DNA of 18,122 nucleotides from a virus (IMGVR_UViG_2778261416_000003:1-18122), one strand, 5' to 3'. Positions 1 to 18,122 are shown, counted from the stretch's first letter. The notes: generated by a model not told the origin, from the letters alone. Translations and numbers: made by a program.

Positions 1-2091
1 ATGTATGTCATTGCAAAAGAACTGATTGGCGCGCCCGGAATGCCTGCTACAACAAAAGGTATTCGCCAGGCATTACAACGTTACGTACAAGGGAAAAGCT
101 GTTGTTCCCGTCGTCGCTCAGGCTCTAAAGCAACTGAATACAGCATCGACTGTTTACCTGAAGTGACGCAGCAGGCATTACGTGAACGCTACGCCCTGCA
201 ACTGATGACGCAAAAAGCCGATGAATCACCGGCTCCGGTGGTGACAAAGGCCAGACGCTTACCTGCCGTGGTTGATGCGGTGGAGGCATATCGCGGATCA
301 CCCCAACTGATGGTCGAACGCCTCAATGCCCTGACTGAAAACCAACGTAAAGTGGCAGAGGCACGAATAGCGATCGTCAGCGAGGTGCTGAAAATCGCGC
401 AACAACCCGGCTTTAGTTGCGCTAAGGCTATCCGGTTCCTCGTTAACAGCCTGGCACGATCACAACTGGACGAGCGCATTGTGGCAATGGTTGAGACGGC
501 GAACGCCAAAAAGGGAAACAGCCGCGCGTTGAGTGAAATCACGCTGAAACGCTGGATTGCGGCCTTTAACAAGGCACAGAACGCCGCTGAACGCCTGCTT
601 TTACTGGCACCGGGTAAACGCCAGGAAATAAAAGCCGAAGATATTAACTGGCTGCCCGAATTTCTGGCGCAGTATCGCCAGTCAAACGGCCGACCAATGA
701 CCGAGGCTTACGAGGATTTTGTTGCTGAATGGCAGCACCGGCACGCTGATGAGCCTTATATGCTCGATATCATGCCCTCTTATGACACCATTCGCCGCGC
801 AATGAAGAAACTGCCGGAAGTGGTGAAACAAAAAGGCCGGGTAACTGGCAGTGAATACCGTCAGCTTGAGGGATTCACGCGCCGCGACTGGTCCAGAATG
901 CCGGTGAATTATGTCTGGATTGGTGACGGTCACGGCATGAAGCTGAAATGCGCGCACCCGGTTCACGGGCGGCCATTCGCACCGGAAGTGACCTTTGTTA
1001 TCGACGGTGGCACGCGCTTTGTGGTGGGCTGGAGCCTTGACCTGGCTGAAAATGTTTTCGCCGTAGCCGGTGCCATACAGCACGGTATTCGCCATCATGG
1101 CAAACCGTTTCTGTATTACTCGGATAATGGCTCCGGGGAAACCGCCGACGTCCTGGATAAGGAGATTGTGGGGATACTGCCACGACTGGGGATTAATCAC
1201 CCGACAGGGATTGCCGGTAATCCGCAGGGACGGGGCATTATCGAACGGCTTAACCGCACATTACCGATGCGCATAGCCCGTAAATACCGCACCTATTTCG
1301 GGAAAGGAGCAGATCGCGAGACGTTACGTAAAACCAACCGCGATTTACGCTCGGCATTCAGTGCCCTGCAACAGGGCAAACGGCTGAACGCCCGGCAGCA
1401 GTCAGCGATGCGTGATTTACCGTCCTGGTCTGAACTGATTGATGCCATTCGTGACGGTGTTGAGTGGTACAACAACCGGCCGCACGATGAATTACCCATG
1501 AAGCCGAACGGTAAACATTACAGCCCGGCGGAGTTCAGAAAAAAACGCCTGGCGGAAGAGGACACGGAAATTGAATGGCTGTCCGATGTTGAACTGCGGG
1601 ATATGTTCCGGCCGATGGTGGAGCGCCCTGTAAGACGCTGTGAAATACGCTGGCTGAATAATATTTACTACGCGCCCGAGCTGCGTGACGAGCATGGCCG
1701 TAAGGTACTTATCAGCTATGACATTCATGATGCCGAACGAATTACCGTGCGCCGCCCGGATGGCAGCGTGATTTGCGAGGCGGTATGGGACGGCAATAAA
1801 CGCGAAGCCTTCCCTGTCAGCGCGGAATACTACAAACAGCAGCAGCGCCTTAAAGGCATGCGTAAACGCGCAGAGGAAAAAATCCGTGATGCCGAGGATG
1901 AGGTTGTCAACGTGCTGGAGCACAAGCCGCAGGAGCCCTGGCTGGAAAACATATACCGCCCTGTGGGTAATACGGTGACCGTTCAGCAACCGGTCGCTGA
2001 CGATGAACCTGATGAAGAATACGAGCGTAATTTCCAGCGGGGATTGCAACTGCTCGAAGCGAAATTAAAAGAAAGTGATCCGCTGGCCTGA
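1..2091 (+). CDS. A: Mu-type DDE transposase (MuA-like)
   Basis: 696-aa ORF; N-terminus (KELIGAPGMPATTKG...) parallels the Mu A end-binding domain; DDE-like motifs VWIGDGHG, YYSDNGSG and a downstream IIERLNR glutamate; followed directly by a MuB-like gene as in Mu. Confidence 0.9.
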   Translation: MYVIAKELIGAPGMPATTKGIRQALQRYVQGKSCCSRRRSGSKATEYSIDCLPEVTQQALRERYALQLMTQKADESPAPVVTKARRLPAVVDAVEAYRGSPQLMVERLNALTENQRKVAEARIAIVSEVLKIAQQPGFSCAKAIRFLVNSLARSQLDERIVAMVETANAKKGNSRALSEITLKRWIAAFNKAQNAAERLLLLAPGKRQEIKAEDINWLPEFLAQYRQSNGRPMTEAYEDFVAEWQHRHADEPYMLDIMPSYDTIRRAMKKLPEVVKQKGRVTGSEYRQLEGFTRRDWSRMPVNYVWIGDGHGMKLKCAHPVHGRPFAPEVTFVIDGGTRFVVGWSLDLAENVFAVAGAIQHGIRHHGKPFLYYSDNGSGETADVLDKEIVGILPRLGINHPTGIAGNPQGRGIIERLNRTLPMRIARKYRTYFGKGADRETLRKTNRDLRSAFSALQQGKRLNARQQSAMRDLPSWSELIDAIRDGVEWYNNRPHDELPMKPNGKHYSPAEFRKKRLAEEDTEIEWLSDVELRDMFRPMVERPVRRCEIRWLNNIYYAPELRDEHGRKVLISYDIHDAERITVRRPDGSVICEAVWDGNKREAFPVSAEYYKQQQRLKGMRKRAEEKIRDAEDEVVNVLEHKPQEPWLENIYRPVGNTVTVQQPVADDEPDEEYERNFQRGLQLLEAKLKESDPLA

Positions 2092-2173
2092 AATAAAAAA
2101 ATAACCCGAGGGGTGACTCAGGTTATTTGAGGTTTCAGTCTCGGAGAATGCTGTCTCAAGCGAGGTGAATAAT

Positions 2174-3106
2174 ATGACCGATATTAACGATGTAATCAAG
2201 ACCATTGATGAACTTATTGATGGCGGCGTACTGACGCAGTATGCCATCGCCAGAGAGGCGGGAATTTCCGACGGCACATTATCGGCTTTCCGTAAGGGAA
2301 AATATAAAGGCGATAACGCTGCTGTGGCTGCTTCCCTGCGCTCCTGGTATGAGAACTGGAATAAACAAAGCGCACTGCCGGAACCGCCGCAGTTTGTGGA
2401 AACTCAGACAGTCCAGGAGCTGCGCGCACTGTTTCAGGCGGTTCGCCTGATGGGCTGTATTAACGTTATTGTGGGCGTACCGGGTGTGGGTAAAACGGCC
2501 ACTGCCCGTAATTACTGCCAGGAGCAACCAAACACCTGGATGATCACCCTGTCACCCGCGCACTCCAGCGTCACGGAGTGTCTGCTGGAGCTGGCCGATG
2601 CGCTGGGGATTGATTACACCCGCGCGAACAAAGGGGCATTATCCCGCGCCATCCGCCGTCGCCTGATGGGAACGCGTGGACTGGTGATTGTGGATGAGGC
2701 GGATCATCTTGGTATTGACGGTCTGGAGCAACTCCGGGCAATTCAGGACGCCACGGGGATCGGGATGGTGCTTATTGGTAACCCGCGCGGATTGTTTAAA
2801 GGTGGACGCCGCGCCTTTGATGATTTATCGCGCCTGTTCAGCCGTCTTGCCCGTACAAAACAACTTCGCAAGGCCAAAAAGGCGGATGTGCTGGCCATTG
2901 CCATGGCGTGGGGGATCAGTGGTGAGGCCGAGCTGGCCGTCATGCAGGCTATCGCTGAAAAGCCGGGAGCGTTACGCGTTCTGACACATACGCTTAACCA
3001 GGCGTGGCTCACCGCCAGCGGTGAAGGCGCGGCGCTGACAGAAAAACATATTAATGCGGCCTTTAAAGAGGTTTATACCAACCCTGAATTACTCTCACAG
3101 GTGTGA
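2174..3106 (+). CDS. B: Mu B-like transposition target-DNA activator, AAA+ ATPase
   Basis: Walker A GVPGVGKT, Walker B LVIVDEADHL; colinear with Mu B (PEPPQFVETQTV, KPGALRVL); ATG 2174 preferred over the track GTG 2165 because GAGG lies about 8 nt upstream. Confidence 0.9.
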   Translation: MTDINDVIKTIDELIDGGVLTQYAIAREAGISDGTLSAFRKGKYKGDNAAVAASLRSWYENWNKQSALPEPPQFVETQTVQELRALFQAVRLMGCINVIVGVPGVGKTATARNYCQEQPNTWMITLSPAHSSVTECLLELADALGIDYTRANKGALSRAIRRRLMGTRGLVIVDEADHLGIDGLEQLRAIQDATGIGMVLIGNPRGLFKGGRRAFDDLSRLFSRLARTKQLRKAKKADVLAIAMAWGISGEAELAVMQAIAEKPGALRVLTHTLNQAWLTASGEGAALTEKHINAAFKEVYTNPELLSQV

Positions 3107-3108
3107 TT

Positions 3109-3330
3109 ATGGCGGTATTTAATATTCCTGATATTTACGGACGCTTTTACCTGGTTAATTTCGATAACGTGAAGGTGATTTCACTGGCCGAAAATAAAGA
3201 ATGTGGCGATTTACTTTTTGAATTTAATGACCGCACACGAATGGTGATATCTGCCGGACTTGATCGCGAAGGTGCGACAGAAGTTTACAGCGGAATATGC
3301 CGTTCTGTTGGTGCGAAACAAGTCAGCTAA
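3109..3330 (+). CDS. small early protein, 73 aa; position and size match Mu kil but sequence not recognised
   Basis: ORF starts 2 nt after the B stop; AGGTG upstream of ATG 3109; synteny with the Mu early region. Confidence 0.5.
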   Translation: MAVFNIPDIYGRFYLVNFDNVKVISLAENKECGDLLFEFNDRTRMVISAGLDREGATEVYSGICRSVGAKQVS

Positions 3331-3342
3331 ATGAGGTGTTAT

Positions 3343-3597
3343 ATGAATATGCAATCCTGCGGTAACAAAATGAATTTATTCGACTCCCTGAACAGCGCGC
3401 GCCGTCTGACCGAACTTGCCGGTGCGGTACTGGAACGCAGTAAGCGCTATCCGCAACGTTTTGCACTGAAAACCACGCCGCCGGTAGGCAACGTGCAGGG
3501 AACCGGTGAAATTGAAATCACCATACAGACCAACGGCCTGCGCCGCCGTGTGAAGGCCACCCGCATCAGCGGCTGCACGGTTTACTGGGAGGTGTGA
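3343..3597 (+). CDS. hypothetical early protein (~84 aa)
   Basis: ORF with GAGGTG 4 nt upstream of ATG 3343 (track start 3331 in the same frame). Confidence 0.5.
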   Translation: MNMQSCGNKMNLFDSLNSARRLTELAGAVLERSKRYPQRFALKTTPPVGNVQGTGEIEITIQTNGLRRRVKATRISGCTVYWEV

Positions 3598-3598
3598 G

Positions 3599-3880
3599 GT
3601 GAAAAAAAATCTCATTGCATGGGCGTGGTCGAGTGGTCTTATTGAGTTTGGTTACGTCCTGCCGGAAGGTGCATTGCCGATAGTTGCCGGAAAGCCTGCC
3701 ACGGTACGGCATGTGATTGAGGTTATGGCGCGTCATGGACGTGATGAACAGGAGCAGTTACTGGTTCCGGGGATACCGGAAGCGGTGACGGAGGAAGAAG
3801 CCTTTAATGCCATGATTCGGTTCTGCCGTGAGGTTAGACGCCGGGTCAGTTATCCAAACAGAACGAGGACCAGAGGATGA
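3599..3880 (+). CDS. hypothetical early protein (93 aa, GTG start)
   Basis: GGAGG about 8 nt upstream of GTG 3599; stop overlaps the next start (ATGA at 3877). Confidence 0.5.
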   Translation: MKKNLIAWAWSSGLIEFGYVLPEGALPIVAGKPATVRHVIEVMARHGRDEQEQLLVPGIPEAVTEEEAFNAMIRFCREVRRRVSYPNRTRTRG

Positions 3881-4149
3881 GTAAAGTCGTACGCATTATT
3901 TTCGAATACAAGGAAGATGTTATCTGCAAAAACTCTGATGGCAGCACGCACAGAGGGGTAAGTCTGGATATACGTTCAACCGGAATAAAGAAGAAAGATA
4001 ATGGACCCGCCATGATTTTTGGGGTGGTTATGCTGGCAGAAAGCAGAAACTTCGCAGAGTTTGTGGCAATGAAAGCCAGTGCATTCATGAAAGACAGAGG
4101 CATGGCTTCCGGGGTTATTAACGGTAATGAATTTAATCAACAGGGGTAA
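3877..4149 (+). CDS. hypothetical early protein, member 1 of a tandem paralogue pair
   Basis: AGAGGA RBS then ATG 3877; N-terminus MSKVVRIIFEY resembles the next gene. Confidence 0.55.
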   Translation: MSKVVRIIFEYKEDVICKNSDGSTHRGVSLDIRSTGIKKKDNGPAMIFGVVMLAESRNFAEFVAMKASAFMKDRGMASGVINGNEFNQQG

Positions 4150-4153
4150 TTCC

Positions 4154-4447
4154 ATGAGCAAAGTACGCGTTATTTTTGAATTTAATCATGTTTCGCATGA
4201 CGAAAAGTTGGCAGGCAATGACTGTGTTGAAGTGCATGAAAAGATTGGAGTGGATGTGAAAACAGAACGTGATACGGATAACAGGCCGACGTCACTCTGT
4301 GACGTTTATGCAAGTATTCTCCAGTATCACAGTCCTGCAATTATTCAGTTTCTCTCAGCGGAATTTCAGGCATCTGCACAGTCTTTTGGAGCGGATGCCA
4401 TCATTAAACGCCACCGCGTGCATAAAGCATCAGGCACACTGCAATAA
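4154..4447 (+). CDS. hypothetical early protein, member 2 of a tandem paralogue pair
   Basis: AGGGG then ATG 4154 (internal Met of track ORF 4127..4447); N-terminus MSKVRVIFEF. Confidence 0.55.
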   Translation: MSKVRVIFEFNHVSHDEKLAGNDCVEVHEKIGVDVKTERDTDNRPTSLCDVYASILQYHSPAIIQFLSAEFQASAQSFGADAIIKRHRVHKASGTLQ

Positions 4448-4458
4448 GGAAAAACAAA

Positions 4459-4989
4459 ATGGCTAAACGCGTTACAAAATTAAAGGCCGCAGCCGAGGCG
4501 GCACCGCAGACCCGGGAAGAAGTCAGCCGTGATATCCGCACCCTGGGAGATATTCAGCGAGAGGCGCTGCGCCTGGAAACGGCGATGAATGACGAAGTGG
4601 CAGAAATCACCGCCCGTTATACGCCGCAGATTGAAAATCTTAAAAAGCAAATCAAAGTGCTTTTTAAAGGGATTCAGGACTGGTGCAAAACCAACCGTGA
4701 TGAGCTGACGAACGGCGGCAAAACCAAAACAGCCAATCTGACCACCGGAACGGTGTCATGGCGGCTGGGAACGCCATCATGCAGCGTCAGCCGTGATGTG
4801 GAAGGTGTGATTGAAATGCTGCGCCGTATGGGGCTTGAGCGTTTCATCCGCACGAAAGAGGAAGTGAACAAGGAAGCCGTCCTGGCGGAGCCGGATGCTG
4901 TGAAAGGCATTGCCGGTATCAAGGTGAATAAAGGCGCTGAAAGTTTTTATGTCGAGCCTTTTGAACAGGACGCCGGACTGAATAAATAA
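4459..4989 (+). CDS. gam: Mu Gam-like host-nuclease inhibitor (Ku-like dsDNA end-binding protein)
   Basis: 176 aa; colinear with Mu Gam (MAK...LKAAAEA, GDIQREALRLETAMNDEVAEIT, ANRDELTNGGKTKTANL, ERFIRTKEEVNKEA, EPFEQ); AAGGA RBS. Confidence 0.9.
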   Translation: MAKRVTKLKAAAEAAPQTREEVSRDIRTLGDIQREALRLETAMNDEVAEITARYTPQIENLKKQIKVLFKGIQDWCKTNRDELTNGGKTKTANLTTGTVSWRLGTPSCSVSRDVEGVIEMLRRMGLERFIRTKEEVNKEAVLAEPDAVKGIAGIKVNKGAESFYVEPFEQDAGLNK

Positions 4990-5134: not shown

Positions 5135-5668
5135 ATGATTGATGCAAAAGTGCTTGAAGGGGTTAAAAACTGGCTGTGTATTTATGGCCGCCTGACCTGC
5201 GGTGTACTGGCTGAAAAAATGAATATGCCGCCATCCTCCATGGTTTATTTTCTGCGTGATGCGGTTGATGCAGGCGTGCTGACGGAATGTAACGGTTTTT
5301 ATGATATTCCGCGCCCCCGCCCGGTGCAGCCGGTTCGTCGCAAATGCAGCCAGGAATCTGCGGCTGATGATGTTCAGTGGTGCGGCTTCAGAAAATCCCT
5401 GCCATGGATTGAGGGGCATGATATTCCGTCGATGGCGTGGGAATTTGCTCAGGGCGTTCTGACCTGTGAAACCGTTTATGTGGTGGCTGAAGTTGATGAG
5501 CAGGCCATGAAAGAAGGCGTGCCCCAGTTTGTGATGGCGTATATCGACATACGCCTGGGCGTCATTATCTGCGGTTTAAGCGGCTGGAATATCACTGAAC
5601 ATGTTCTGCGCTACCTGATTGTTGACCGGACAGCAGCGCCTGCCGGGATATCTGCGGAGGTGGCGTAA
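5135..5668 (+). CDS. hypothetical early protein with a possible N-terminal winged-helix DNA-binding region
   Basis: 177-aa ORF after a 145-bp AT-rich gap; GGGGA RBS; N-terminal pattern GRLTCGVLAEKMNMPPSSMVYFLRDAVDAGVL looks HTH-like. Confidence 0.55.
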   Translation: MIDAKVLEGVKNWLCIYGRLTCGVLAEKMNMPPSSMVYFLRDAVDAGVLTECNGFYDIPRPRPVQPVRRKCSQESAADDVQWCGFRKSLPWIEGHDIPSMAWEFAQGVLTCETVYVVAEVDEQAMKEGVPQFVMAYIDIRLGVIICGLSGWNITEHVLRYLIVDRTAAPAGISAEVA

Positions 5669-6183
5669 TGTTCTTTAAAACATCAAACCCTTCCGCGCTG
5701 GCTGCGTGGCAAAAATACCAGCAGGACTGCCAGAAAGTTAAGGATGAGGCAAAACGCCTTGAGGCCGTGCTGAATGTTGCGTGCCGGTCGGTATTTGTAT
5801 CCGGTATCAGTGGATTTTACTTTAAGGGACTGCGTTTTACGGAGGACAAATATCCTTTTCATCGCGACTTATGGCGAAAACCGACTGCGTCGAATGGCTG
5901 GAGCTGCACACCGCGCACATCACGTATCCCTAAAACCCTGCGTGTTGCCTCTGATGAACTGAACAGTCTGTGGCGTGAATATTCGCCCGTCACGTATGCC
6001 AGAACCGATGCGCTGTTGTTCTGGTTGGGTATTGATTTCTCGGCAATCCTGTTTGGCCCTGTGAAGTGGTTCTGCGTTGACGATGTGATTTACCTTCAGT
6101 GCGGCGTAAAACCCGCAAAACAGAAAATGACCGAAATACTGTCTGATGAGTTTTATGCTGCTGAAAAGCGAGTCAGGGGGTGA
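5668..6183 (+). CDS. hypothetical early protein (171 aa)
   Basis: GGAGGTGG RBS; start overlaps the upstream stop (TAATG). Confidence 0.55.
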   Translation: MFFKTSNPSALAAWQKYQQDCQKVKDEAKRLEAVLNVACRSVFVSGISGFYFKGLRFTEDKYPFHRDLWRKPTASNGWSCTPRTSRIPKTLRVASDELNSLWREYSPVTYARTDALLFWLGIDFSAILFGPVKWFCVDDVIYLQCGVKPAKQKMTEILSDEFYAAEKRVRG

Positions 6184-6186
6184 TGC

Positions 6187-6738
6187 ATGATGAAATTACA
6201 ACCCATGGGACTAAAAGGTCGCGCCCCCGCTCATGTCCGTCCGTGGACACCTGAAGAAGATGCGCTGCTGATTGCGCTTTATTCATCCACCCCGGTTAAG
6301 GATATTGCTGCCAGAATAAAAAGAACTGTCTGGGCTGTATATAACCGGACTGGTGTATTGCGCAGTTCATACCCGGAGTTACTGAAATATAAACACCCAA
6401 GATTTACACCTGATGAAGATAAGTTTATTCGAAAAAATGCCAGAACAATGACCTGCCAGCAAATGGGAGAATATCTCGGACGTAATAAAGATTCTGTCAG
6501 ATGTCGGGCAGGAATGATTGGTGCTGGATTAACAAAGTGCGGAGAGTTACGCCCCGGCACGCACATATCTGATGATGATGTACGTCTTATACGTGCGCTG
6601 CGTGATTCCGATTACCCACGCCGTCTGTCATTCCGGGAAATTGGCGAAAAGTTTGGAATATCTGAACATTCTGCTCACGCAGTTTATTACCGTCGCCGGA
6701 CTGCCGAGGACGCTGTATTACGGGAGTTAACGCCATGA
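6187..6738 (+). CDS. hypothetical early protein with three tandem HTH-like repeats
   Basis: 183 aa; repeated module W/F-T-P-E/D-E-D ... I-A/G-x-x-I/L-x-R-T/N/S (WTPEEDALLIALY..., FTPDEDKFIRKN..., ISDDDVRLIRAL...SFREIGEKFGIS); AGGGGG RBS. Confidence 0.6.
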   Translation: MMKLQPMGLKGRAPAHVRPWTPEEDALLIALYSSTPVKDIAARIKRTVWAVYNRTGVLRSSYPELLKYKHPRFTPDEDKFIRKNARTMTCQQMGEYLGRNKDSVRCRAGMIGAGLTKCGELRPGTHISDDDVRLIRALRDSDYPRRLSFREIGEKFGISEHSAHAVYYRRRTAEDAVLRELTP

Positions 6739-7064
6739 TAACGACCTTATTTGTTGAATCAGATGAACCTCTTGTGTGTGCCGCCGGAATGCCGCTCTGT
6801 GGCGGAACGCTGACCGGTGTTTATTTCGGGGATTTACGCGGTTATCCCTGGCATTCACTGAATGATGCTTTCCCACCTGATATGGAGGCTGCCGTGCTGA
6901 TTGTTCAGTATGGTCACCGTCAGGAGCTGCGCATCGGCCATATGGGGTATGAAGGCTTTTTTGTTGATGAAGAAACCGGAGCCTGCCTTGAAGATGAAGA
7001 CGGACAGGTGACGCACTGGTGTCATATTTCGGCTTTACCGGAATTACGGGAGGTGAATGCGTGA
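6735..7064 (+). CDS. hypothetical early protein (109 aa)
   Basis: ATGA overlap with the upstream stop; GGGAG RBS. Confidence 0.5.
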   Translation: MITTLFVESDEPLVCAAGMPLCGGTLTGVYFGDLRGYPWHSLNDAFPPDMEAAVLIVQYGHRQELRIGHMGYEGFFVDEETGACLEDEDGQVTHWCHISALPELREVNA

Positions 7065-7411
7065 GAAGTTATATTGATAATGAAAAGCTGGAGACAATAA
7101 GCGACTGTCTTAGCTTGCTGGCAAAAATCAAAGAAACTATTGAAGAGATTAAATTTCAGCTTGAATACGCACCATGTGGCGATGATGCATGGCGTAATGC
7201 TGCCAGAAAAGCACTGGCTGTCTTTCAGAAACAACGCCGGGCTGTTGAATACCGCCTTGCTGTATTGCGCCAGGAGGAAAAGGAAAGAAATATAAGACGT
7301 CATGAACGCGTTAATGATTTCCTTGTTCGTGAATTAAAAGAGCGCGTGCCGGAGTCGGTGTTTTTTGAATGTGAGGCTATAGCCCGTAGCAAAGCACTGG
7401 AAACAGATTAA
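7061..7411 (+). CDS. hypothetical early protein (~116 aa, GTG start), probably coiled-coil
   Basis: GGAGG upstream of GTG 7061, which overlaps the upstream stop (GTGA); charged heptad-like sequence. Confidence 0.5.
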   Translation: MRSYIDNEKLETISDCLSLLAKIKETIEEIKFQLEYAPCGDDAWRNAARKALAVFQKQRRAVEYRLAVLRQEEKERNIRRHERVNDFLVRELKERVPESVFFECEAIARSKALETD

Positions 7412-7426
7412 GCAGGCAGGTGAATA

Positions 7427-9626: not shown

Positions 9627-10708
9627 TGCCTTATCAGCCTTTACCGCTGGCACAGTTAATCACGCAGACACAGCAGGATATCAGCCAGCGCCTGCCCGGC
9701 TCGCAGCCGGGTGTGAATGAAACCACCCTGAATGCCATTGCTTACGCTCAGGCAGGGTTATCTGCTCAGGAGCATGAGCATCTGGCCTGGATTGCGCGTC
9801 AGATCATCCCGACCGAAGCCGATGAAGCCGAACTGCTGAAACACTGTGCATTCTGGGGCGTCATGCGTAAGCCTGCCTCTCGGGGGGACGGGCCGGTTCA
9901 GCTGATGCTGACCACGGATGCGGGGATCAAGGAAGGTGTGCTTCTCCAGCGAAGTGATGGCGTGGTTTACCGTATCACCACCTCCCTGACCGGTAAGGCC
10001 GGTACGCTGAATGTCAGTGTGGAAGCCGAAAGTGCCGGTCGTGCGGGGAATGCCCCGGCAGGGACAAAACTGACATTTATCACACCGCAGGCGGGGATCA
10101 ACCAGACGGCCACGGTGACCGGAACGGGGATCACCGGTGGTGCGGATGTGGAAACCGTGCCGGAGCTGCTTTCCCGTCTGGTTTTCCGGGTGCAGAATCC
10201 ACCGTCCGGCGGCACGCAGTATGATTTTGAACGCTGGGCGCGTGAAGTGCCGGGCGTGACGCGGGCATGGTGCCGCCCGGAATGGCCGCAGGCGGGCAGC
10301 GTGGGGGTAACGTTTGTTCAGGATAATAACCCGGACATTTTCCCCGGTGACGGTGATGTTCAGCGGGTGGCGGATTATATCCGCAGTCATGATGATCCGG
10401 CGACCGGCCAGCCTGTCGGACAGCCTCTGGGGCCGACGGTGACCGTGTTTAAACTGACCAATAAGCCGGTGCCCTTCAGCATCAGGATCATCCCGAAAAC
10501 ACCGGAGAATCAGGCGGCCGTAAAACAGGCGCTGACCGACCTGTTGTATAACGAATCCCGGCCCGGCGGTCTGGTTCTGCCGTCGTCTTTCTGGCGGGCG
10601 GTGGCAGGGGTGAAAAATCTGGAGGATTTTGAAGTGCGCAGTCCGCTGACGTCAGTTCAGGCGGGAGACAGTGAGCTGCTGACGGTAGGAGAAATCACAT
10701 GGCTGTAA
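9626..10708 (+). CDS. baseplate J-like protein (Mu gp47 family)
   Basis: 360 aa; GGGGGAG RBS; TAATG overlap with gp46; size and position match Mu gp47 / P2 J. Confidence 0.8.
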   Translation: MPYQPLPLAQLITQTQQDISQRLPGSQPGVNETTLNAIAYAQAGLSAQEHEHLAWIARQIIPTEADEAELLKHCAFWGVMRKPASRGDGPVQLMLTTDAGIKEGVLLQRSDGVVYRITTSLTGKAGTLNVSVEAESAGRAGNAPAGTKLTFITPQAGINQTATVTGTGITGGADVETVPELLSRLVFRVQNPPSGGTQYDFERWAREVPGVTRAWCRPEWPQAGSVGVTFVQDNNPDIFPGDGDVQRVADYIRSHDDPATGQPVGQPLGPTVTVFKLTNKPVPFSIRIIPKTPENQAAVKQALTDLLYNESRPGGLVLPSSFWRAVAGVKNLEDFEVRSPLTSVQAGDSELLTVGEITWL

Positions 10709-11259
10709 CCCTGACCCCGCATCAGCGCGCCCTGTTGCAGTTACTGCCTGACGGGCTGGCATGGGACAAGCGTCCGTCATCCGTACTGGCATCATTATGT
10801 CTGGGCCTCAGTCATTCGACAGCGCGTGTATCCTGGACGGGTAAACAGCTGCTTGCCGAGCGTTTCCCTGACACGTCGCGCCTGCTGCTGGAAGACTGGG
10901 AGCGTTATCTCGGGCTTCCCGAGTGTGATATGGCCGGAGCCACCCTCACGGAGCGACAGCGTTATGCCGGAAATAAATACCGGATGAAGCCCTCGCTGAA
11001 CCGTGAATTTTATATCCGGTTTGCGGCGGAGTTTGGTTATCAGATTGACATTCAGCCCTCACCGGATTCGCAGTGGGTCAGTATTGTCACGATTAACAGT
11101 GAAACCGGCTACCGGAATATGAATGTGCTGGATGATATTCTCACGCCGCTGCGTATTTATGAAGGCGGTGCGCTGGAATGTATTCTGAACCGTTATAAGC
11201 CTGCATGGCAGACGTTTATTTACGTTTATGCAAACAGCCATGAAGAGGAGACTATTTAA
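10699..11259 (+). CDS. Mu gp48-like tail protein (DUF2313 / YmfQ-like)
   Basis: 186 aa; AGGAG RBS; lies between the baseplate J-like gene and the tail fibre as in Mu and e14. Confidence 0.75.
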
Positions 11260-12140
11260 TGTTTCATGTTGATAATAATTCCGGCGTGGCGAATATGCCT
11301 GCGCTGGCACCGGCGCAGAGTAATACCACCACCTGGTTTACCGAAGGTGACGGACAAAAAGGTATCAGCTGGATTGGTCAGGACTGGCTGAATATTCTCC
11401 AGGCCGAACTGCTGAATATTCTGGCTGAAGCCAGTATTCAGCCGGATAAGGCGCAGTTAAACCAGCTTACGCTGTCCATTAAAGCCATTATCGCTGCGAA
11501 TGCCTTTTCCCGGAAAAATAACCTGAAAGAAATTGCTGATGCCGGTGCGGAGGCCCAGCGTCTGGCCCGTGGTTATCTTGGTCTGGGGACGCTTGCCACA
11601 AAAAACAGTCTTGGTCCCGCTGACATTAATGCCCTGGCGAAGGATCAGAATCTCGCCGACCTGGAGAATAAGGGAACCGCCCGTAATAATCTGGATGTTT
11701 ACAGCAAAAGCGAAGGTGATAACCGTTACCTGCGCAGGGAGCAGAACGGCGCAGACATTCCGGATAAAGGGGCTTTTATCGATAACGTCGGTTTACGGGA
11801 AACGGTAAACAGGGCGGCGAATGCCCTGCCATCGGACGGCACCGCCGTTGCCGCGAACAGGCTGGCAAATGCCCACACAATTAATGGTGTTCCCTTTGAC
11901 GGGACGCAGGATATCACTATCTCATCAGGAACAGTAACCGCCATAAGACTGGGGTCGGTGACCGCACATATGCCCGGAACATGGGAAAGCTGGGATCTGA
12001 ATCTGGGGGGCGGCAATGTTCTTACCGGAATTAAAGTACAGGATGTCGGTAAGAATACGGCAGATAACGTCGGCGGCGTGTATTACCGGCCGTTGCAGTA
12101 TCTGTTAAATGGAGCATGGGTGACGGCTGCAAGTATATAA
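11259..12140 (+). CDS. tail fibre protein, constant N-terminal part plus variable C-terminal part (current orientation)
   Basis: 293 aa; tail-fibre-like N-terminus; C-terminal [18 protein letters not shown] resembles the P2 H C-terminus; a gix-like site lies inside the gene at 11776..11801. Confidence 0.85.
11776..11801. repeat. gix-like recombination site, left (inside the tail-fibre gene)
   Basis: TTATCGATAACGTCGGTTTACGGGAA, about 22/26 identical to the reverse complement of the Mu gix sequence as remembered; the inverted repeat begins at its centre. Confidence 0.7.
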
Positions 12141-12149
12141 TGATATTCA

Positions 12150-12173
12150 GAAGGCCTTCCGGCCTTCTTTATT
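12150..12173. terminator. intrinsic terminator hairpin between the convergent fibre and assembly genes
   Basis: GAAGGCC-TTCC-GGCCTTC (7-bp stem, 4-nt loop) followed by TTTATT on the + strand. Confidence 0.6.
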
Positions 12174-12693
12174 ACTGTGGCTGCTCAGGCCATTTAATGG
12201 CGTTAAATTCAGCTTCTGTTTTAATGGCGGGTAGTTCCATTTTCTTCACCTGACTGATGTATGCCATCCATTGGGTAAGTGCTGCTCTGTCTTCATCGCT
12301 GATGGTGCCCAGTTGTAGCTCCGTTCTCCAGTCATTAATTTTTTCATATGCCTGATTAAGATATGACTGGCGCATTGCTTCCAGTTTTCTTGCGTAGTTA
12401 ACCGGAATACGGGAGATTATGCCATTATCAAACTTCCAGTTTCCTGAAATATCCGTGCCTTCAGGGAGTTCATCGACCTCAACCACAGAAAACCCCGCAG
12501 GATACAGCGCCGAGGCGTCCTGTGATATTGAGCAGATAACGCCGCTGTCAGGTGTTATGCAAAGTTTATATTTTTTGGTGAATAATGGCAGGGATTCGTA
12601 GAAATCCTTACCATCTTCACTCTGGAAATACTGAACATTATTACCATATGGCATATTTTCAGGATAATAACGGGTTATATTTTTTAGTTCCAT
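12172..12693 (-). CDS. tail fibre assembly protein (Tfa / Mu U' / P2 G family)
   Basis: 173 aa; SEDGKDFYE...DASALYPAGFSVVEVDELP and C-terminal WPEQPQ match Tfa-family proteins such as e14 TfaE as remembered. Confidence 0.85.
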   Translation of the reverse strand: MELKNITRYYPENMPYGNNVQYFQSEDGKDFYESLPLFTKKYKLCITPDSGVICSISQDASALYPAGFSVVEVDELPEGTDISGNWKFDNGIISRIPVNYARKLEAMRQSYLNQAYEKINDWRTELQLGTISDEDRAALTQWMAYISQVKKMELPAIKTEAEFNAIKWPEQPQ

Positions 12694-12744
12694 AAAATCC
12701 TCCTGGAAATAAATCTGTTTTAAAATATATTATTTACTGACTAT

Positions 12745-13107
12745 TTATAACTGAGATACCGTAATCCATGTACCTCCGACTAATTTTTGCAGGGGTCTGA
12801 ATGCTATAAAATCGTTTGAAGCATCAACTTTACTGTCAATCTGCAGGCCTGCCATAACATTACCGTACGCAGAGTAATATGCCCCACCGTACATTACCTG
12901 CCTGTTCTCTGCTCCCAGCCTGATATCCTGGATATATCGGGAATCCGCATCCTGCTGTGTTATACCAGAAGTGATGTTTATGTCCTGCGTCCCGTCAAAG
13001 GGAACCCCATTAATATTTCTTGGGGTGGCGAGTCTATTCGCGGCAACGGCGGTGCCGTCCGATGGCAGAGCATTCGCCGCCCTGTTTACCGTTTCCCGTA
13101 AACCGAG
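12745..13107 (-). CDS. alternative tail-fibre C-terminal cassette (S'v-like); start-less, expressed only after inversion
   Basis: Minus-strand frame from the gixR centre to stop at 12745 reads [24 protein letters not shown]...FRPLQKLVGGTWITVSQL, sharing the first ~23 aa and the C-terminal pattern with the + strand fibre; followed on the minus strand by the Tfa gene. Confidence 0.75.
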   Translation of the reverse strand, partial: LGLRETVNRAANALPSDGTAVAANRLATPRNINGVPFDGTQDINITSGITQQDADSRYIQDIRLGAENRQVMYGGAYYSAYGNVMAGLQIDSKVDASNDFIAFRPLQKLVGGTWITVSQL

Positions 13108-13118
13108 GTTTTCAGGAA
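13093..13118. repeat. gix-like recombination site, right
   Basis: TTCCCGTAAACCGAGGTTTTCAGGAA, about 22/26 identical to the Mu gix sequence TTCCTGTAAACCGAGGTTTTGGATAA as remembered. Confidence 0.75.
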
Positions 13119-13841: not shown

Positions 13842-15896
13842 ATGTCAGACTCCAAGTGGAAAATGCTCTCCGCCATGCCCGGAGAGTTTTCAGTCAAGGT
13901 TGCCGGTGGCACGGTGGCATTTATTGAAAGCCCTTTCCGCCCTTCGGGTAATAAAGGGGGGATCACCTTCGCAGACTGCGTGATCCGCTTCAGCACGAAA
14001 GAGCCATTATGGGTAATGCCGGTATCCGGTAATCCCAGTGCAGAAATCACCAGTTCAGGCGTGACTGGCATCATTCCAATCACATCTGACGTGGCCGGAA
14101 CGCTCACGCCCTCCGACTGGAATGCACCGGATAACGCCGGGCCTTCCGGTAGCACGAATGGCAGCAGTTCAAAGCCGGAATATTACTTTGTTGTCATTCT
14201 CGCGGGTCAGTCAAATGGCATGGCCTACGGCGAGGGGCTGCCGTTACCGGATTCGTTTGACCGCCCGGACCCACGCATTAAGCAACTGGCACGCCGCAGT
14301 ACGGTAACGCCCAACGGTACGTCGTGTACATACAACGACATCATTCCGGCAGACCACTGCCTGCATGATGTTCAGGATATGAGCGGGATAAACCACCCGA
14401 AAGCTGATCTGGCAAAAGGCCAGTACGGGACTGTCGGTCAGGGGTTGCATATTGCCAAAAAACTGCTTCCCTATATCCCACAGAATGCCGGGATACTTCT
14501 GGTGCCCTGTTGTCGTGGCGGGTCAGCATTCACCACTGGAGCCGACGGCTCATTCAGTGAGGCCAGCGGTGCTTCCGCTGATTCTTCACGCTGGGGGGCC
14601 GGTAAACCTCTGTATCAGGACCTGGTAAGCCGCACCAAAGTCGCGCTGGCGAAAAACCCGAAAAACAAACTTCTGGCTGTGGTCTGGATGCAGGGAGAGG
14701 CAGACCTTGCCTCAGGAAGCCAGCAGCATAATAGTTTATTCACGGCCATGGTTCAGCAGTTCAGAACTGACCTGGCTCCGCTTGCTGCGCAGTGCGTGAG
14801 TGGAAATGCCACCACGGTGCCGTGGATTTGCGGTGATACCACGTATTACTGGAAAAACGCTGGCACCGATAAATATGAGGCAGTATACGGTGGCTACAAA
14901 GGCAAGGAAGCACAGAAAATTTTCTTTGTACCGTTCCTGACGGATGAGAATGGACAGAGCACGCCAACGAATGCTCCGGCGGAAGACCCGGATATTGTGG
15001 CTGTCGGGTATTACGGTGCAGCATCCCGAACCCAGGGCAGTTTTGTTTCGACACAGCGTGACAGCCATTTCAGCTCATGGGCACGCAGGGGCGTCATTTC
15101 AGACCGTCTGGCCTCAGCTATTATGCTCCATGCAGGGCGCACGGCTGAACTGATGCGCGGGCAGACCGTGACACCACCGGATGAGAAGCCGTCACCTGAT
15201 ACACCATCAAAACCGTCCACGCCACCCGCAGACACCACGACGATGAGTACGCTATTTGCTTACCGGGCATCTGAGTCTGAAGGACGGTTGACACCACAGG
15301 GTTGGGCTGCCGGAGGTGGCAAGGCTCAAATCGTGGATGATGCCGGAGCCAGCGGGGGTAAGGCAATGAAACTGACCAAGGAAACAGGAAGAGCCCCCTG
15401 GTACCTTGAGCATGATGCTGGTAATGGTGCGGACCTGCTGGGTAAAGGTGGTCTTGTCAGTTGTCGTTTTAAACTCGATGGCGCGCTTACGGCTAATCAG
15501 TACGCACTGGCGCTGTACTGGCCGGTTTCTGCCCTGCCGCAAGGGGTTACTCTGGAAGGAAATGCCGGTCATAACCTGCTGGCATCGTTCTACGTACAGA
15601 GCGATGCCACAGACCTTAACGTGATGTATCACAAAGGAAACACGGCGCAGAACACGAAGCTGGGGTCATTCGGCGCATTTAATAACGAATGGCATACGCT
15701 GGGCTTCCGTTTTGCCGGTAACAACAGTATTGAGGTGACACCGGTCATTGATGGTAAGGACGGGACACCATTCATGCTGTCGCAGTCTCCGGTCGGCACG
15801 TTTACGGCAGACAAGTTGCGCGTGACCGATATCACTAAAAATGCGACTTACCCGGTACTGATTGACAGTATCGTGGTGGAAGTGAATAACGCGTAA
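13842..15896 (+). CDS. prophage-type sialate O-acetylesterase (NanS-p-like; SGNH/SASA esterase core, Pro/Ser/Thr linker, C-terminal lectin-like domain)
   Basis: 684 aa; esterase-core motif ILAGQSNGMAYGEGLPLPD, then VPCCRGGSAF and WMQGEADL; PPDEKPSPDTPSKPSTPPADTTT linker; location after tail-fibre genes as for NanS-p in Stx prophages; start codon uncertain. Confidence 0.75.
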   Translation: MSDSKWKMLSAMPGEFSVKVAGGTVAFIESPFRPSGNKGGITFADCVIRFSTKEPLWVMPVSGNPSAEITSSGVTGIIPITSDVAGTLTPSDWNAPDNAGPSGSTNGSSSKPEYYFVVILAGQSNGMAYGEGLPLPDSFDRPDPRIKQLARRSTVTPNGTSCTYNDIIPADHCLHDVQDMSGINHPKADLAKGQYGTVGQGLHIAKKLLPYIPQNAGILLVPCCRGGSAFTTGADGSFSEASGASADSSRWGAGKPLYQDLVSRTKVALAKNPKNKLLAVVWMQGEADLASGSQQHNSLFTAMVQQFRTDLAPLAAQCVSGNATTVPWICGDTTYYWKNAGTDKYEAVYGGYKGKEAQKIFFVPFLTDENGQSTPTNAPAEDPDIVAVGYYGAASRTQGSFVSTQRDSHFSSWARRGVISDRLASAIMLHAGRTAELMRGQTVTPPDEKPSPDTPSKPSTPPADTTTMSTLFAYRASESEGRLTPQGWAAGGGKAQIVDDAGASGGKAMKLTKETGRAPWYLEHDAGNGADLLGKGGLVSCRFKLDGALTANQYALALYWPVSALPQGVTLEGNAGHNLLASFYVQSDATDLNVMYHKGNTAQNTKLGSFGAFNNEWHTLGFRFAGNNSIEVTPVIDGKDGTPFMLSQSPVGTFTADKLRVTDITKNATYPVLIDSIVVEVNNA

Positions 15897-15901
15897 GCAG
15901 G

Positions 15902-15943
15902 ATAAAAAAATGCCGCCGGTAAGGGAAAACAAGAAACCGGCGG
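15902..15943 (-). terminator. minus-oriented intrinsic terminator
   Basis: GCCGCCGGT ... ACCGGCGGC (9-bp stem, 15-nt loop); on the minus strand the hairpin is followed by T7 (+ 15903..15909). Confidence 0.45.
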
Positions 15944-15992
15944 CAAAAAGATCGTTATATCCAAAGCAAAAAATGCAGTGCACCTTTTTACC
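15903..15992 (-). ncRNA. candidate small RNA (~90 nt) divergent from the small membrane-peptide gene
   Basis: Minus-strand TTGACA (+ 16025..16020), 15-nt spacer, TAATAT (+ 16004..15999), then the terminator above; no ORF. Confidence 0.25.
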
Positions 15993-16040
15993 TAACAGAT
16001 ATTACCGGTGTCAACACCATGTCAATAATTGGGAGGGATA

Positions 16041-16223
16041 ATGACATTTTTACAGCTTATTTTATTGTATTTCTGCACGGCAGTATGTGCGTTATATCTG
16101 GTGAGTGGTGGTTATAAGGCCATCAGAAATTATGTTCGCCGCAAAATTGAGGACGCAGCAGCTGAAAAACTCAGTAAAACAGCGCAGGTAACTCCGCTCC
16201 CAAAAGACCCGACCCAGCCCTGA
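16041..16223 (+). CDS. small membrane peptide (60 aa, one predicted TM helix, basic C-terminal tail)
   Basis: GGGAGGG RBS 4 nt upstream of ATG 16041; hydrophobic stretch FLQLILLYFCTAVCALYLVSGG; terminator immediately downstream. Confidence 0.45.
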   Translation: MTFLQLILLYFCTAVCALYLVSGGYKAIRNYVRRKIEDAAAEKLSKTAQVTPLPKDPTQP

Positions 16224-16238
16224 TTGCAGGGCTTTATT
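16216..16238 (+). terminator. intrinsic terminator overlapping the stop codon of the membrane-peptide gene
   Basis: AGCCCTG-ATTG-CAGGGCT (7-bp stem, 4-nt loop) followed by TTATT. Confidence 0.5.
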
Positions 16239-16258
16239 CCCGCATAAGGAGGATATAC

Positions 16259-16513
16259 ATGCCAGAAATTAAAGGCACCGTCACTGAAGACCTGGTAAAA
16301 CAGGCACTGTATTCCGGTGAAGTAAATAAGTTGCTGAAAGCGCAGGTCCGCAAGGATTTTGAGGCACAAATCGACACTTACGTTGATGAAGTGCTGGCAA
16401 AACTTATTGGGCCAGCAGTTGCGGCCAGTGATGCTGATAATGAGCCGAAAACCGACGCGCAGCCAGAGCAACCAGACCCGGCTCAGCCCGGAACTGACAG
16501 TACCATGATGTAA
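16259..16513 (+). CDS. hypothetical acidic protein (84 aa)
   Basis: AGGAGG RBS 6 nt upstream of ATG 16259; hairpin CAAACCGG ... CCGGTTTG (16519..16546) downstream. Confidence 0.5.
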   Translation: MPEIKGTVTEDLVKQALYSGEVNKLLKAQVRKDFEAQIDTYVDEVLAKLIGPAVAASDADNEPKTDAQPEQPDPAQPGTDSTMM

Positions 16514-16974: not shown

Positions 16975-17097
16975 AGCAGCCTCTTACGCTGGCAATTAAC
17001 CAATTGACTTCTATAAATTAGTTGATTTGTTTGCTTTGCGGTATTCAAATGTACAATCATTCAGCACTTATGCGTTACAGCACCGTTTAAAATTAGT

Positions 17098-17190
17098 GAT
17101 CAAACTCATAAATTTTCGCTAATGACATTTCGTGTTATTTGTTGTATCAATTAAATAAATCAAATCGATCGTTTTTGTCGATCGATTGAG
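17098..17190 (+). promoter_or_regulatory. com-mom upstream regulatory region with three GATC (Dam) sites and a palindrome
   Basis: GATC at 17098..17101, 17167..17170 and 17180..17183; palindrome AATCGATCG-N7-CGATCGATT (17163..17187); Mu mom is known to be controlled by Dam methylation of three upstream GATC sites. Confidence 0.4.
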
Positions 17191-17230
17191 TGATAAAGAT
17201 ATCAACAACAAAGCAGGAGGTTATGCGGCC

Positions 17231-17431
17231 ATGTATCGAAACATACGGTGCCGACATTGTAACAAGCTACTGGCACGAGCCAGCTTCAGTTATCTGGAAG
17301 TTAAATGTCCGCGCTGTAAAACCCTCAATCAAATCACATCTCAGAGCGCCACAGAGCACCCCACATACACAAGGAAATCCTGTCGTGGGGAACAGAAAGC
17401 AAGTTACATCCCGTATCATCAGCACGCCTGA
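17231..17431 (+). CDS. com: Com-like zinc-finger translational activator of mom
   Basis: 66 aa; CxxC...CxxC (CRHC ... CPRC); AGGAGG 10 nt upstream of ATG 17231; overlaps the mom reading frame as in Mu. Confidence 0.75.
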
Positions 17432-18122
17432 ACTTATTCACTATAACGACAATATCGTCGGTTATGGCTCCCGTGAGTTACGGGTTGAGACAATAAGTTG
17501 CTGGCTGGCCCGGCTGGTCGTCGTCAATAAACATTACAGCCATCGTTTCGTAAATAATTCCTACCTTCATCTGGGCATATTTTCAGAACGGGAGCTGGTT
17601 GGCGTAATGCAATGGGGTTATGCCCTTAATCCAAACAATGGTGCACGCGTCGTAACTGGCACGCAGAACCGCGAATATATGGAGCTTAACCGGTTATGGC
17701 TGCATGACTGTATGCCGAGAAACTCCGAATCAAGGGCAATCAGTTACGCGCTCAAACTAATCAGACAACTTTATCCGCAGGTGCAGTGGGTTCAGTCGTT
17801 TGCAGATGAGCGTTGTGGCTGTCTTGGTGTCGTGTACCAGGCAAGCAATTTTGATTATGTAGGCAGTCATGAAACAACATTCTATGAACTTGATGGCGAG
17901 TGGTATCACGAGATTTGCAAGAATGCAATCAAACGAGGAGGACAGCGAGGTGAACATCTGCGGGCTAATATCGACAGAGCCAGTGTTCATAAATTCCGTC
18001 AGTTTCGTTACATCCGGTTTCTGGACAAGAGAGCCAGAAAACGCCTTAACACAAAGCTATTCAAAGTCCAGCCTTACCCAAAACCACAAACAGTTAAAAC
18101 TGGTTTGAAAGAGAGTGAATGA
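17385..18122 (+). CDS. mom: Mom-like DNA modification protein; start uncertain (ORF open from 17190)
   Basis: Long ORF in a different frame overlapping the 3' half of com; GTG 17385 has AGGA 9 nt upstream; rightmost-gene position after gin and com as in Mu. Confidence 0.7.

Follow-up and report, generated by a model that had tools for sequence, protein, structure and literature searches.

Prophage Sp18 of O157:H7 Sakai is reported to be Mu-like and apparently intact, and to have an invertible host-specificity region with genes unlike those of Mu (PMC2669165). The phage satellites P4, PICI/SaPI and PLE have no capsid or tail genes and carry genes of their own for mobility and regulation. Laboratory mini-Mu elements are deletion derivatives that retain both ends and may or may not carry A and B. 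We analyzed a stretch of DNA of 18,122 nucleotides, hereafter the window, in which a Mu-type early module is joined to late genes of the baseplate, tail fibre and com-mom. The comparisons presented below indicate, with a probability of about 0.9, that it derives from an ordinary Mu-like E. coli prophage whose central 19.6 kb were lost very recently in one deletion.

The window (1-18122) is 100% identical to contig NOSF01000001.1 of the E. coli assembly GCA_002521955.1. It forms the interior of an element of 19.47 kb, carried on a contig of 350 kb. Comparison with an empty preA site showed that the two halves of preA bound the element on either side with a 5-bp duplication, TATAT. The left and right termini, as found in L006, match those of copies at other insertion sites and are correctly oriented; relatives with the same termini sit in rhsD, bglJ, citD/citE, hofC and further sites. 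At the left end, two genes stand divergently arranged ahead of A, as expected of a Mu-like prophage:

Directly left of the window (source contig), minus strand: putative repressor, 176 aa, placed by position because Pfam gave no match and BLAST no likeness to Mu c
Directly left of the window (source contig): ner, 82 aa, HTH_35 (gene call and Pfam)

The flanking features which the preliminary description of this DNA had named (c, ner, the two ends and a 5-bp target duplication) were all found, the repressor as a putative gene at the c position. No late genes are contiguous with the window, since host preA sequence flanks the element. The element is a defective Mu-like prophage of E. coli and not a viable phage.

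Mu-type A, B, kil, gam and other early genes occupy positions 1-8107:

1..2091, plus strand: transposase A, 696 aa, intact (Pfam Mu-transpos_C 2.1e-17, HTH_Tnp_Mu_1 2.6e-6)
2174..3106, plus strand: transposition ATPase B, 310 aa, intact (Pfam Phage-MuB_C 7.7e-25, AAA_22)
3109..4447, plus strand: five small early genes, including a Kil-family gene at 3343-3597 (gene calls, Pfam Kil_protein)
4459..4989, plus strand: Gam host-nuclease inhibitor, 176 aa (Pfam Phage_Mu_Gam 5.5e-42; 57% identical to Mu Gam)
5135..7735, plus strand: gp11-like, gp12-like and SANT/Myb-like proteins and three small ORFs (Pfam Gp11_C, Phage_Mu_Gp12; annotation of relatives)
7697..8107, minus strand: DUF2513-like gene, 136 aa, closing the early region (Pfam DUF2513 match below the gathering score, E 6.6e-5)

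Both Pfam matches of transposase A exceed their cut-offs, as for DDE transposases of the Mu A family, and the protein aligns end-to-end with Mu A at just 22% identity (E 1e-9). Judged from its sequence, it is a Mu-family enzyme, though not close to that of Mu; the same protein sequence is present in the full-length prophages L009 and L011. The adjoining B gene codes for an ATPase of the MuB-type AAA+ target-capture family (48% identical to Mu B). The DNA spanning it is identical in full-length relatives, and the set of small genes at 3109..4447 is the same there. Identity to the Mu counterparts is 68% for the gp11-like and 55% for the gp12-like protein. The DUF2513-like gene has a low G+C content (0.42), and its counterpart in JKHS016 is annotated as DUF2513.

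The late module contains the following features:

8582..11259, plus strand: baseplate genes gp45, gp46, gp47 and gp48, intact (Pfam Phage_Mu_Gp45, GP46, Baseplate_J, Phage_Mu_Gp48)
11259..12140, plus strand: tail fibre, 293 aa, a constant N-terminal part and a variable C-terminal part now joined (47% identical to Mu S residues 1-191; no Pfam match)
11781..13113, unstranded: invertible segment between 86-nt inverted repeats (11781-11866 and 13028-13113, 93% complementary)
12172-12693, minus strand: tail-fibre assembly gene, inside the invertible segment (Pfam Caudo_TAP 4.8e-19)
12745-13119, minus strand: alternative fibre C-terminus, inside the invertible segment
13184..13756, plus strand: Gin-like serine invertase, 190 aa (Pfam Resolvase 1.6e-51, HTH_7; 74% identical to Mu Gin)
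13842..16513, plus strand: cargo cassette with a SASA/DUF6645 carbohydrate esterase (684 aa), DUF1378 and DUF826 (Pfam DUF6645 7.4e-68, SASA 1.5e-13, DUF1378, DUF826)
17231-17431, plus strand: com (Pfam Zn_ribbon_Com 7.5e-13; 45% identical to Mu Com)
17385-18122, plus strand: mom (Pfam Mom 7.8e-78; 75% identical to Mu Mom)

The assignment of the baseplate and fibre genes to the Mu type is borne out, gp45-48 being 50-57% and the fibre 47% identical to their Mu counterparts. Of the baseplate genes, gpN is gone and gpP truncated, so that the set kept is incomplete. Within each module, stops and starts overlap, an arrangement inherited from the parent phage. The invertible segment lies in the opposite orientation in DLI.5a; in TOE17, just a sub-block matching window 12084-12603 is inverted, and this match is gapped. 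The three-gene family order of the cargo cassette recurs ahead of the holin gene in a lambdoid prophage.

Alignment of Mu proteins by tblastn (NC_000929) gave collinear matches at 28-75% identity for the early B, gam, gp11, gp12 and GemA and for the late P, gp45-48, S, U, gin, com and mom. Together with the Pfam matches, this confirms the reported gene order, in which the early module is followed after about 0.5 kb by gp45-48, the fibre, gin and com-mom. The element shares with Mu the 5-bp target duplication and the invertible fibre segment. It differs from Mu in its distant transposase, its shorter fibre and a single assembly gene in the invertible segment, and its c, ner and kil have no BLAST-detectable similarity to the Mu counterparts. 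In Mu, com directly follows gin, whereas here an insert of 3.4 kb (13842-17230), including the esterase cassette of 2.7 kb, separates the two.

The likeness to full-length Mu-like prophages of E. coli and Shigella, which are presumably of the Sp18 type, is far closer: gene order, termini and the esterase cassette between invertase and com are the same. The left half (1-8283) is identical at 8,283 of 8,283 bases to L009 and L011, both at other sites, where GemA, Mor, lysozyme and terminase genes follow. The JE86-ST05 prophage, full-length and with head and tail genes upstream, matches window 8279-18122 at 99.95% identity. Full-length relatives are collinear with the window throughout, and no extra or element-specific gene was found. 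The full-length copies studied (JE86-ST05, GCA_053880635.1 and an ENA metagenome scaffold) carry the same cargo cassette. What sets the element apart from them is the missing stretch of about 19.6 kb, from gp16 codon 37 to gpP codon ~272.

The two halves meet at the following features:

8172..8283, plus strand: gp16/GemA remnant, first 37 codons, left edge of the deletion (protein match and alignment with both parents)
8279..8283, unstranded: deletion junction, the 5-bp microhomology TTGCC common to both parental sequences (three-way comparison of the window, L011 and L003)
8284..8592, plus strand: remnant of baseplate gene P (gp44), last ~103 codons (Pfam GpP_4th 2.3e-8)

The gp16 remnant is 100% identical to residues 1-37 of L011 GemA (170 aa) and 60% identical to Mu GemA residues 1-42. 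The P remnant matches Mu P residues 273-370 of 379, and relatives carry the full gene of 374 aa. The left and right BLAST matches overlap at window 8279-8283: the window tracks the left parent L011 to ...CCCAGTTGCC and the right parent L003 from TTGCCCGTTC..., with TTGCC in common. The missing interval amounts to 19,570 bp as measured on the JE86-ST05 prophage, a relative 93-99.95% identical and not the exact parent; the searches yielded no one full-length prophage that matches both sides of the junction perfectly. The two remnants are fused in different reading frames. The preliminary description had seen a tight, clean junction between modules, but its spacer of about 0.5 kb consists of these two gene fragments fused out of frame. 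Its reading as a clean internal deletion derivative holds for the internal deletion and fails for "clean", since both gp16 and gpP are cut.

The lysis, head and contractile-tail modules are present in the full-length relatives and absent from the element. As the preliminary description had stated, Mor, C, lysis, portal, capsid, sheath, tube and tape-measure genes are missing, because the two collinear blocks of the relatives account for the entire window. Its statement that the late activator is not encoded here is likewise correct: no Mor/C homologue was detected in the window, where the best match of the relatives' Mor/C protein has an E value of 0.32. Mu has two activators, Mor and C, whereas a single Mor/C-family activator is annotated in the full-length relatives examined.

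These comparisons support the following course of events. A Mu-like transposable phage of ~39 kb, of a type common in E. coli which, to judge from gene content, is presumably that of prophage Sp18 of O157 Sakai, entered preA by Mu-type transposition, with duplication of TATAT. As seen at the junction, one internal deletion of ~19.6 kb then ran from gp16/GemA codon 37 to codon ~272 of P; we infer as its probable cause either illegitimate recombination or slippage during replication at the 5-bp TTGCC. On comparison with the relatives, the deletion removed the lysis genes and the sole Mor/C-type late activator, together with terminase, portal, protease, capsid, sheath, tube, tape measure and gpN; most of gpP was lost as well, along with any further genes that preceded it. 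What survives on the left is the early region (A, B, kil, gam and its other genes) with the repressor and ner, and on the right gp45-48, the fibre, its invertible segment and the invertase, the esterase cassette and com-mom; both ends are kept. From mini-Mu genetics we infer that such an element would be unable to form particles or to lyse the cell, and that its late genes, mom included, would lack their activator. Like laboratory mini-Mu elements that carry A and B, it could transpose if derepressed, and headful packaging may be possible given a compatible Mu-like helper. These abilities would be a by-product of the deletion and not an evolved lifestyle.

The deletion in effect yields a natural mini-Mu, a one-off and recent one. 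Both ends are correctly oriented, and the internal deletion leaves A and B intact. The element resembles laboratory mini-Mu in keeping both ends, the repressor, ner, A and B and in having lost lysis and morphogenesis genes, and by this likeness it is expected to transpose alone and to be packaged only with a helper. Unlike laboratory mini-Mu, it arose spontaneously in a wild prophage and keeps a non-functional partial baseplate/fibre module and the right-end genes.

The distribution of the junction was then considered. The gp16'-'P junction was found in 0 of 5,426 complete E. coli genomes, in none of the GTDB species representatives and in none of the JGI metagenomes. It occurs in three assemblies, one from NCBI and two Logan assemblies of sequencing runs. 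The preA site is common to both junction-bearing assemblies that show flanks; the third (L008) is a 1-kb sequence without flanks, whose insertion site may differ. Independent deletions with other breakpoints were found in TOE17, DLI.5a, 2018-166 (at IS1A) and JMF1 (at IS903B), and JKHS016 has a different rearrangement. Head-less derivatives number at least five, from a query that favoured their recovery, and a probe from this phage type matches about 230 complete genomes. The junctions of TOE17 and DLI.5a were each found in one genome only, and no second-site copy of any deleted form was seen. The preliminary description had looked to a recurrent ~18-kb architecture in related genomes; the same junction is absent from the complete genomes, and the other head-less relatives differ in breakpoint.

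It is unlikely that the element works as a natural mini-Mu, transposing when derepressed and riding in the particles of a co-resident phage of the same type. This reading keeps some weight, given intact ends, repressor, ner, A and B and the several such prophages found in many E. coli.

A grounded prophage under host-level selection, in which lethal lysis and morphogenesis genes are gone and useful cargo is kept (the SASA/DUF6645 esterase cassette, possibly mom or superinfection immunity), is improbable. The cassette and repressor are indeed intact, and the presence of the junction in up to three assemblies, possibly from non-independent isolates, suggests some persistence. However, kil, A and B are still there, so that derepression would remain harmful; the deletion is rare, the same cargo is found in full-length copies, and there is no sequence divergence from which selection could be measured. 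Such selection is compatible with the deletion and is not an alternative to the deletion itself.

The preliminary description had also proposed a helper-dependent, satellite-like element. In such a case selection would have kept its modules for transposition, receptor binding and DNA modification, with heads and tails borrowed from a resident Mu-like phage. Intact ends, repressor, ner, A and B would suit such an element, as would the identity of its A protein and left-half DNA to functional-looking full-length phages. Several head-less relatives exist, and at least five against ~230 probe-matching genomes could hint at more than neutral decay. E. coli genomes often contain more than one such Mu-like prophage; TOE17, for example, has a further chromosomal locus with gp16. 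The recurrence is discounted, because head and tail genes lie centrally and are bound to be lost in any internal deletion that spares the ends, and because of the query bias. The element resembles P4, PICI/SaPI and PLE in lacking capsid and tail genes and in having its own mobility and regulation genes, but it differs from them in that it forms no conserved lineage recurring across the genomes searched, carries no genes to sense, exploit or manipulate a helper, and has its boundary inside genes. The junction cuts two genes out of frame, was seen at one chromosomal site only and is absent from the 5,426 complete genomes, and the other derivatives have different breakpoints, two of them IS-associated. 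The absence of any unique gene implies that there is no capsid-size, helper-sensing or interference function, and part of the baseplate set is missing. In its 8.3-kb left half the element shows zero substitutions against full-length phages, which implies that it has no independent evolutionary history. The satellite reading is very improbable and already largely refuted.

A misjoining of pieces from one or two Mu-like prophages, conceivable in a draft assembly from a strain that may carry several related ones, has a negligible chance of being correct, since the same junction is present in the NCBI assembly and two Logan assemblies, the 5-bp homology is far below what misleads an assembler, and matching preA halves with a 5-bp duplication bound the element in the 350-kb contig.

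The locus should be labelled as a defective Mu-like prophage with a mapped deletion and not as a new class of mobile element; beyond correct annotation its importance is small. Its value, a modest one, is that of a dated case of prophage decay, with the breakpoint, the microhomology and 100%-identical parental sequence all at hand. The several independent central deletions in this phage type, two of them IS-associated, show how fast such prophages are disarmed while transposition genes and cargo are kept. If the element does function as a natural mini-Mu, the repeated and separate origin of head-less derivatives would mean that populations of transposable phages continually produce short-lived parasitic hitch-hikers.

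Mu, D108 and SfMu were absent among the DNA-level matches when the whole window was compared by megablast with phage records, where the only matches were Mu-like inserts in two Stx phages and, in part, Yersinia phages; the comparison with Mu was therefore made on proteins. The plus strand of the window carries a continuous gene set, which is listed below together with the genes on the opposite strand.

Gene content of the window
1-2091: transposase, 696 aa (Pfam Mu-transpos_C and HTH_Tnp_Mu_1)
early region: ATPase, 310 aa (Pfam Phage-MuB_C)
early region: Kil-family gene, Gam, gp11-like and gp12-like genes, further small genes
7697-8107, minus strand: DUF2513-like gene that closes the early region, where Mu has gp15
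late region: gp45, gp46, gp47 (Baseplate_J) and gp48
late region: fibre, 293 aa
late region, minus strand: tail-fibre assembly gene
late region: Gin-like invertase
13842-16513, right end: esterase cassette of SASA/DUF6645 carbohydrate esterase (684 aa), DUF1378 and DUF826, between invertase and com
16681-16941, minus strand: 86-aa ORF between DUF826 and com
right end, after the cassette: com, mom

Mu proteins used as tblastn queries against the window gave collinear matches, with identities of 48% for B, 57% for Gam, 68% for gp11, 55% for gp12, 50-57% for gp45-48, 47% for the N-terminal part of S, 28-32% for U/U', 74% for Gin, 45% for Com and 75% for Mom. Together with the Pfam domains, these matches bear out the gene list of the preliminary description. 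An end-to-end alignment of the transposase with Mu A gives no more than 22% identity, against 47% with that of Pseudomonas phage VW-6B and 41% with that of Klebsiella phage Kp4852-3. For the repressor, ner and kil of the element, BLAST showed no similarity to the Mu counterparts. To judge from these comparisons, the genes of the window are of Mu type, yet the parent phage was clearly not Mu itself. Relative to Mu the phage is a mosaic, with 22% identity in the transposase, 48-68% in B, gam, gp11 and gp12, and about 75% in gin and mom. The DUF2513-like gene and the 86-aa ORF sit in pockets of low G+C content (0.41-0.45) and look like accessory genes; the early-region slot of the former differs among relatives. 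Rfam, tRNA and promoter/terminator scans of the window added nothing.

BLAST against 5,426 complete E. coli genomes split the window into two blocks, 1-8283 and 8279-18122, which overlap by five bases. The ORF starting at 8172 is identical to residues 1-37 of the 170-aa gp16/GemA of full-length relatives, while the segment 8284-8592 matches residues 273-370 of the Mu baseplate protein P (gp44) as well as Pfam GpP_4th, and the two fragments occupy different reading frames. In a three-way comparison, the window agrees with the left parent up to and including TTGCC, and with the right parent from that TTGCC onwards (junction 30-mer, GGCAAACCCAGTTGCCCGTTCAGAACGGTT). The 0.5 kb between the modules, previously read as a tight and tidy joint, is actually a scar, where a 5-bp microhomology joins truncated gp16 to truncated gpP out of frame. 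Outside the scar, the overlap of stops and starts reflects how genes are normally packed in the parent phage. The chimeric 129-aa ORF that spans the junction has database records; a sequence look-up of the 52-aa gp16' fusion ORF gave no record.

Two full-length prophages, L009 (an ENA metagenome scaffold, with an insertion site that differs from that of the window's element) and L011 (GCA_053880635.1), share the transposase sequence exactly and match window 1-8283 at 100% identity. Both run on into a complete GemA, a Mor-family gene, lysozyme, spanin genes, gp27 and terminase. Over the 9,844 bases of the right half, the window differs by 4 mismatches and 1 gap (99.95% identity) from the prophage of JE86-ST05, which carries upstream the genes for portal, protease, capsid, sheath, tube, tape-measure, gpN and a complete gpP. 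Measured on this prophage, the missing interval is 19,570 bp, which gives a parent of about 39 kb. The sole annotated Mor/C-family gene of the full-length relatives examined (40% identity to Mu C, 28% to Mu Mor) falls within the deleted interval and its protein had no match in the window, in agreement with the earlier claim that the late activator is missing. A RefSeq 'tRNA-OTHER' of the JE86-ST05 prophage (L003 8792-8871, minus strand), placed between the minor head protein and virion morphogenesis genes, also belongs to the region that the window has lost. The parent phage type is very common; 2,248 blocks are listed for the gp45 protein in the assembly collection, and the gp45 contexts inspected (10 of 10) were full tail modules. 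This type is presumably that of prophage Sp18 of O157 Sakai. According to the published description, Sp18 is apparently an intact Mu-like prophage, and its invertible host-range segment is of its own kind (PMC2669165).

The E. coli contig NOSF01000001.1 (GCA_002521955.1) is 100% identical to the window over all 18,122 bases. The window's immediate neighbours on the left are an 82-aa Ner-like HTH gene and, divergent from it, a 176-aa gene, which by its position is the putative repressor. Both halves of the host gene preA bound the element, and comparison with uninterrupted preA revealed a 5-bp duplication, TATAT, at the insertion of the element, which measures 19,470 bp as a whole. No late genes are contiguous with the window, the preA halves framing the element. 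Its termini, judged by the empty site, appear to be 5'-GTAACC...GCTATA-3' (L006, the element in preA, 579-800 and 19950-20048) rather than the TG...CA of Mu, and they are the same in the related prophages examined at other sites, except for the variant left end of the TOE17 element. The latter reads TGTATAACC, and its unambiguous duplication is only 4 bp. A T precedes the left end in all four copies with the GTAACC terminus (L001, L002, L005, L006) and may reflect a target preference. The TTTGATAC(C) motifs repeated near both ends of the element are probably transposase binding sites. The element is unbroken in the 350-kb contig, and in the Logan assembly of SRR3971774 it runs without a break between host flank and fibre repeat. 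Since the element was assembled without breaks, a near-identical second copy in that strain is weakly argued against; a more divergent helper phage is possible.

The junction is on record in three assemblies: the source, the Logan assembly of SRR3971774, in which the preA flank is seen again, and a 1-kb contig from SRR32141831 that lacks flanks. It was found in none of the 5,426 complete E. coli genomes, nor by exact-pattern scans of GTDB (one genome per species) and of JGI metagenomes. Other head-less relatives exist, each with its own breakpoints.

Head-less relatives of the element (strain, insertion site and deletion, in coordinates of the JE86-ST05 locus, L003)
TOE17, citD/citE: deletion from about 3.4 kb to 19.05 kb
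DLI.5a, bglJ: deletion from 3.15 kb to 22.6 kb
2018-166, hofC: deletion from 0.26 kb to 17.9 kb, the joint marked by IS1A
JMF1, rhsD: early gene and fibre gene separated by IS903B

Among the 5,426 genomes, the junctions of TOE17 and DLI.5a are each confined to a single genome, against about 230 genomes that match the flanking probe sequences. JKHS016 is damaged in another way, with an inverted head-tail block and loss of baseplate genes. Recurrence had been put forward as an argument against a one-off deletion; deletions do recur, but the architecture of the window does not, so that the process is recurrent and the product is not. An internal deletion that spares both ends necessarily removes the central head and tail genes. 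The search query favoured the recovery of head-less derivatives, and two hits that resembled them (H36 and H38) are full Mu-like prophages inside other prophages: one 'place' spanned both query halves, and the SASA/DUF6645 or tail genes of the lambdoid or P2-like resident had been joined to it. The JMF1 element in rhsD (L001 19061-20317) matches the window at 99.9% identity on either side (8 and 6 mismatches), with IS903B in place of window 7260-11318. Because this interval contains the scar of the window, the JMF1 ancestor may have been either a full-length phage or a copy that was head-less before it moved.

The observations of the preliminary description are largely right, and these data support the view that the window belongs to a prophage made defective by an internal deletion, a new case of a familiar kind. 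It is possible, and compatible with this deletion, that the host keeps the disarmed prophage for its cargo. An assembly artefact is unlikely, as the junction is common to up to three assemblies, a 5-bp homology is too short to mislead an assembler and a target duplication frames the element. Of the two readings in the preliminary description, the deletion derivative is upheld by the scar and the full-length parents, whereas the satellite-like element, with a single site and no genes of its own, is not; an evolved satellite is contradicted by a scar within genes that joins them out of frame, the lack of genes specific to the element, an incomplete baseplate, and a single insertion site together with the absence of the junction from the other genomes searched. 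With no substitution in the left half relative to the full-length phages, the deletion is very recent, and the element has not evolved independently as a satellite.

The comparisons show that the parent phage inserted into preA by Mu-type transposition, and that a later single deletion at the microhomology truncated gp16 and gpP. The late activator, the lysis genes, the head genes and most tail genes were lost, and the ends, repressor, ner, A, B and right-end genes kept. From established Mu biology, the element would be unable to form particles or to lyse; its late genes, including mom, would be deprived of the activator on which the late promoters of Mu depend, what remains of the baseplate and fibre genes would now lie downstream of the early operon, and no tail would be buildable without gpN and gpP. 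It would be the natural equivalent of a mini-Mu, the laboratory deletion derivative keeping both ends, with A and B. Derepression could thus in principle allow it to transpose, and a compatible helper could allow its packaging by the headful. Searches of the literature yielded nothing relevant on natural mini-Mu elements or on satellites of transposable phages.

In Mu, nothing stands at the place that the esterase cassette occupies between invertase and com. The same three-gene family order is found between antiterminator and holin in the lambdoid prophage of M7638 (L023 2040-4614). The cassette, which we take to resemble that of the sialate O-acetylesterase nanS-p in Stx phages, appears to be cargo that lambdoid and Mu-like phages have exchanged; no paper on nanS-p in Mu-like phages was found.

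The fibre segment (11781-13113) has 86-nt inverted repeats at its edges and only one tail-fibre assembly gene, directed away from the fibre gene, so oriented that the 293-aa fibre variant has no co-oriented chaperone gene in the window. DLI.5a (L002 23328-24679) and L017 have the opposite orientation, with the assembly gene downstream of a 296-aa fibre and co-directional with it, which indicates that inversion is active in nature. In TOE17 (L004 24186-24704), only a 520-bp sub-block is inverted, with gaps.

Mu-like prophages of the window's type were repeatedly found within other prophages (L023 9058-11033; L024 10243-11735), adjoining a truncated terminase small-subunit gene in a lambdoid prophage and a truncated tail-fibre assembly gene in a P2-like one, and Mu-like inserts also lie within two Stx-converting phages (LC727881, LC727895). 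A resident phage hit in this way would be inactivated or remodelled.
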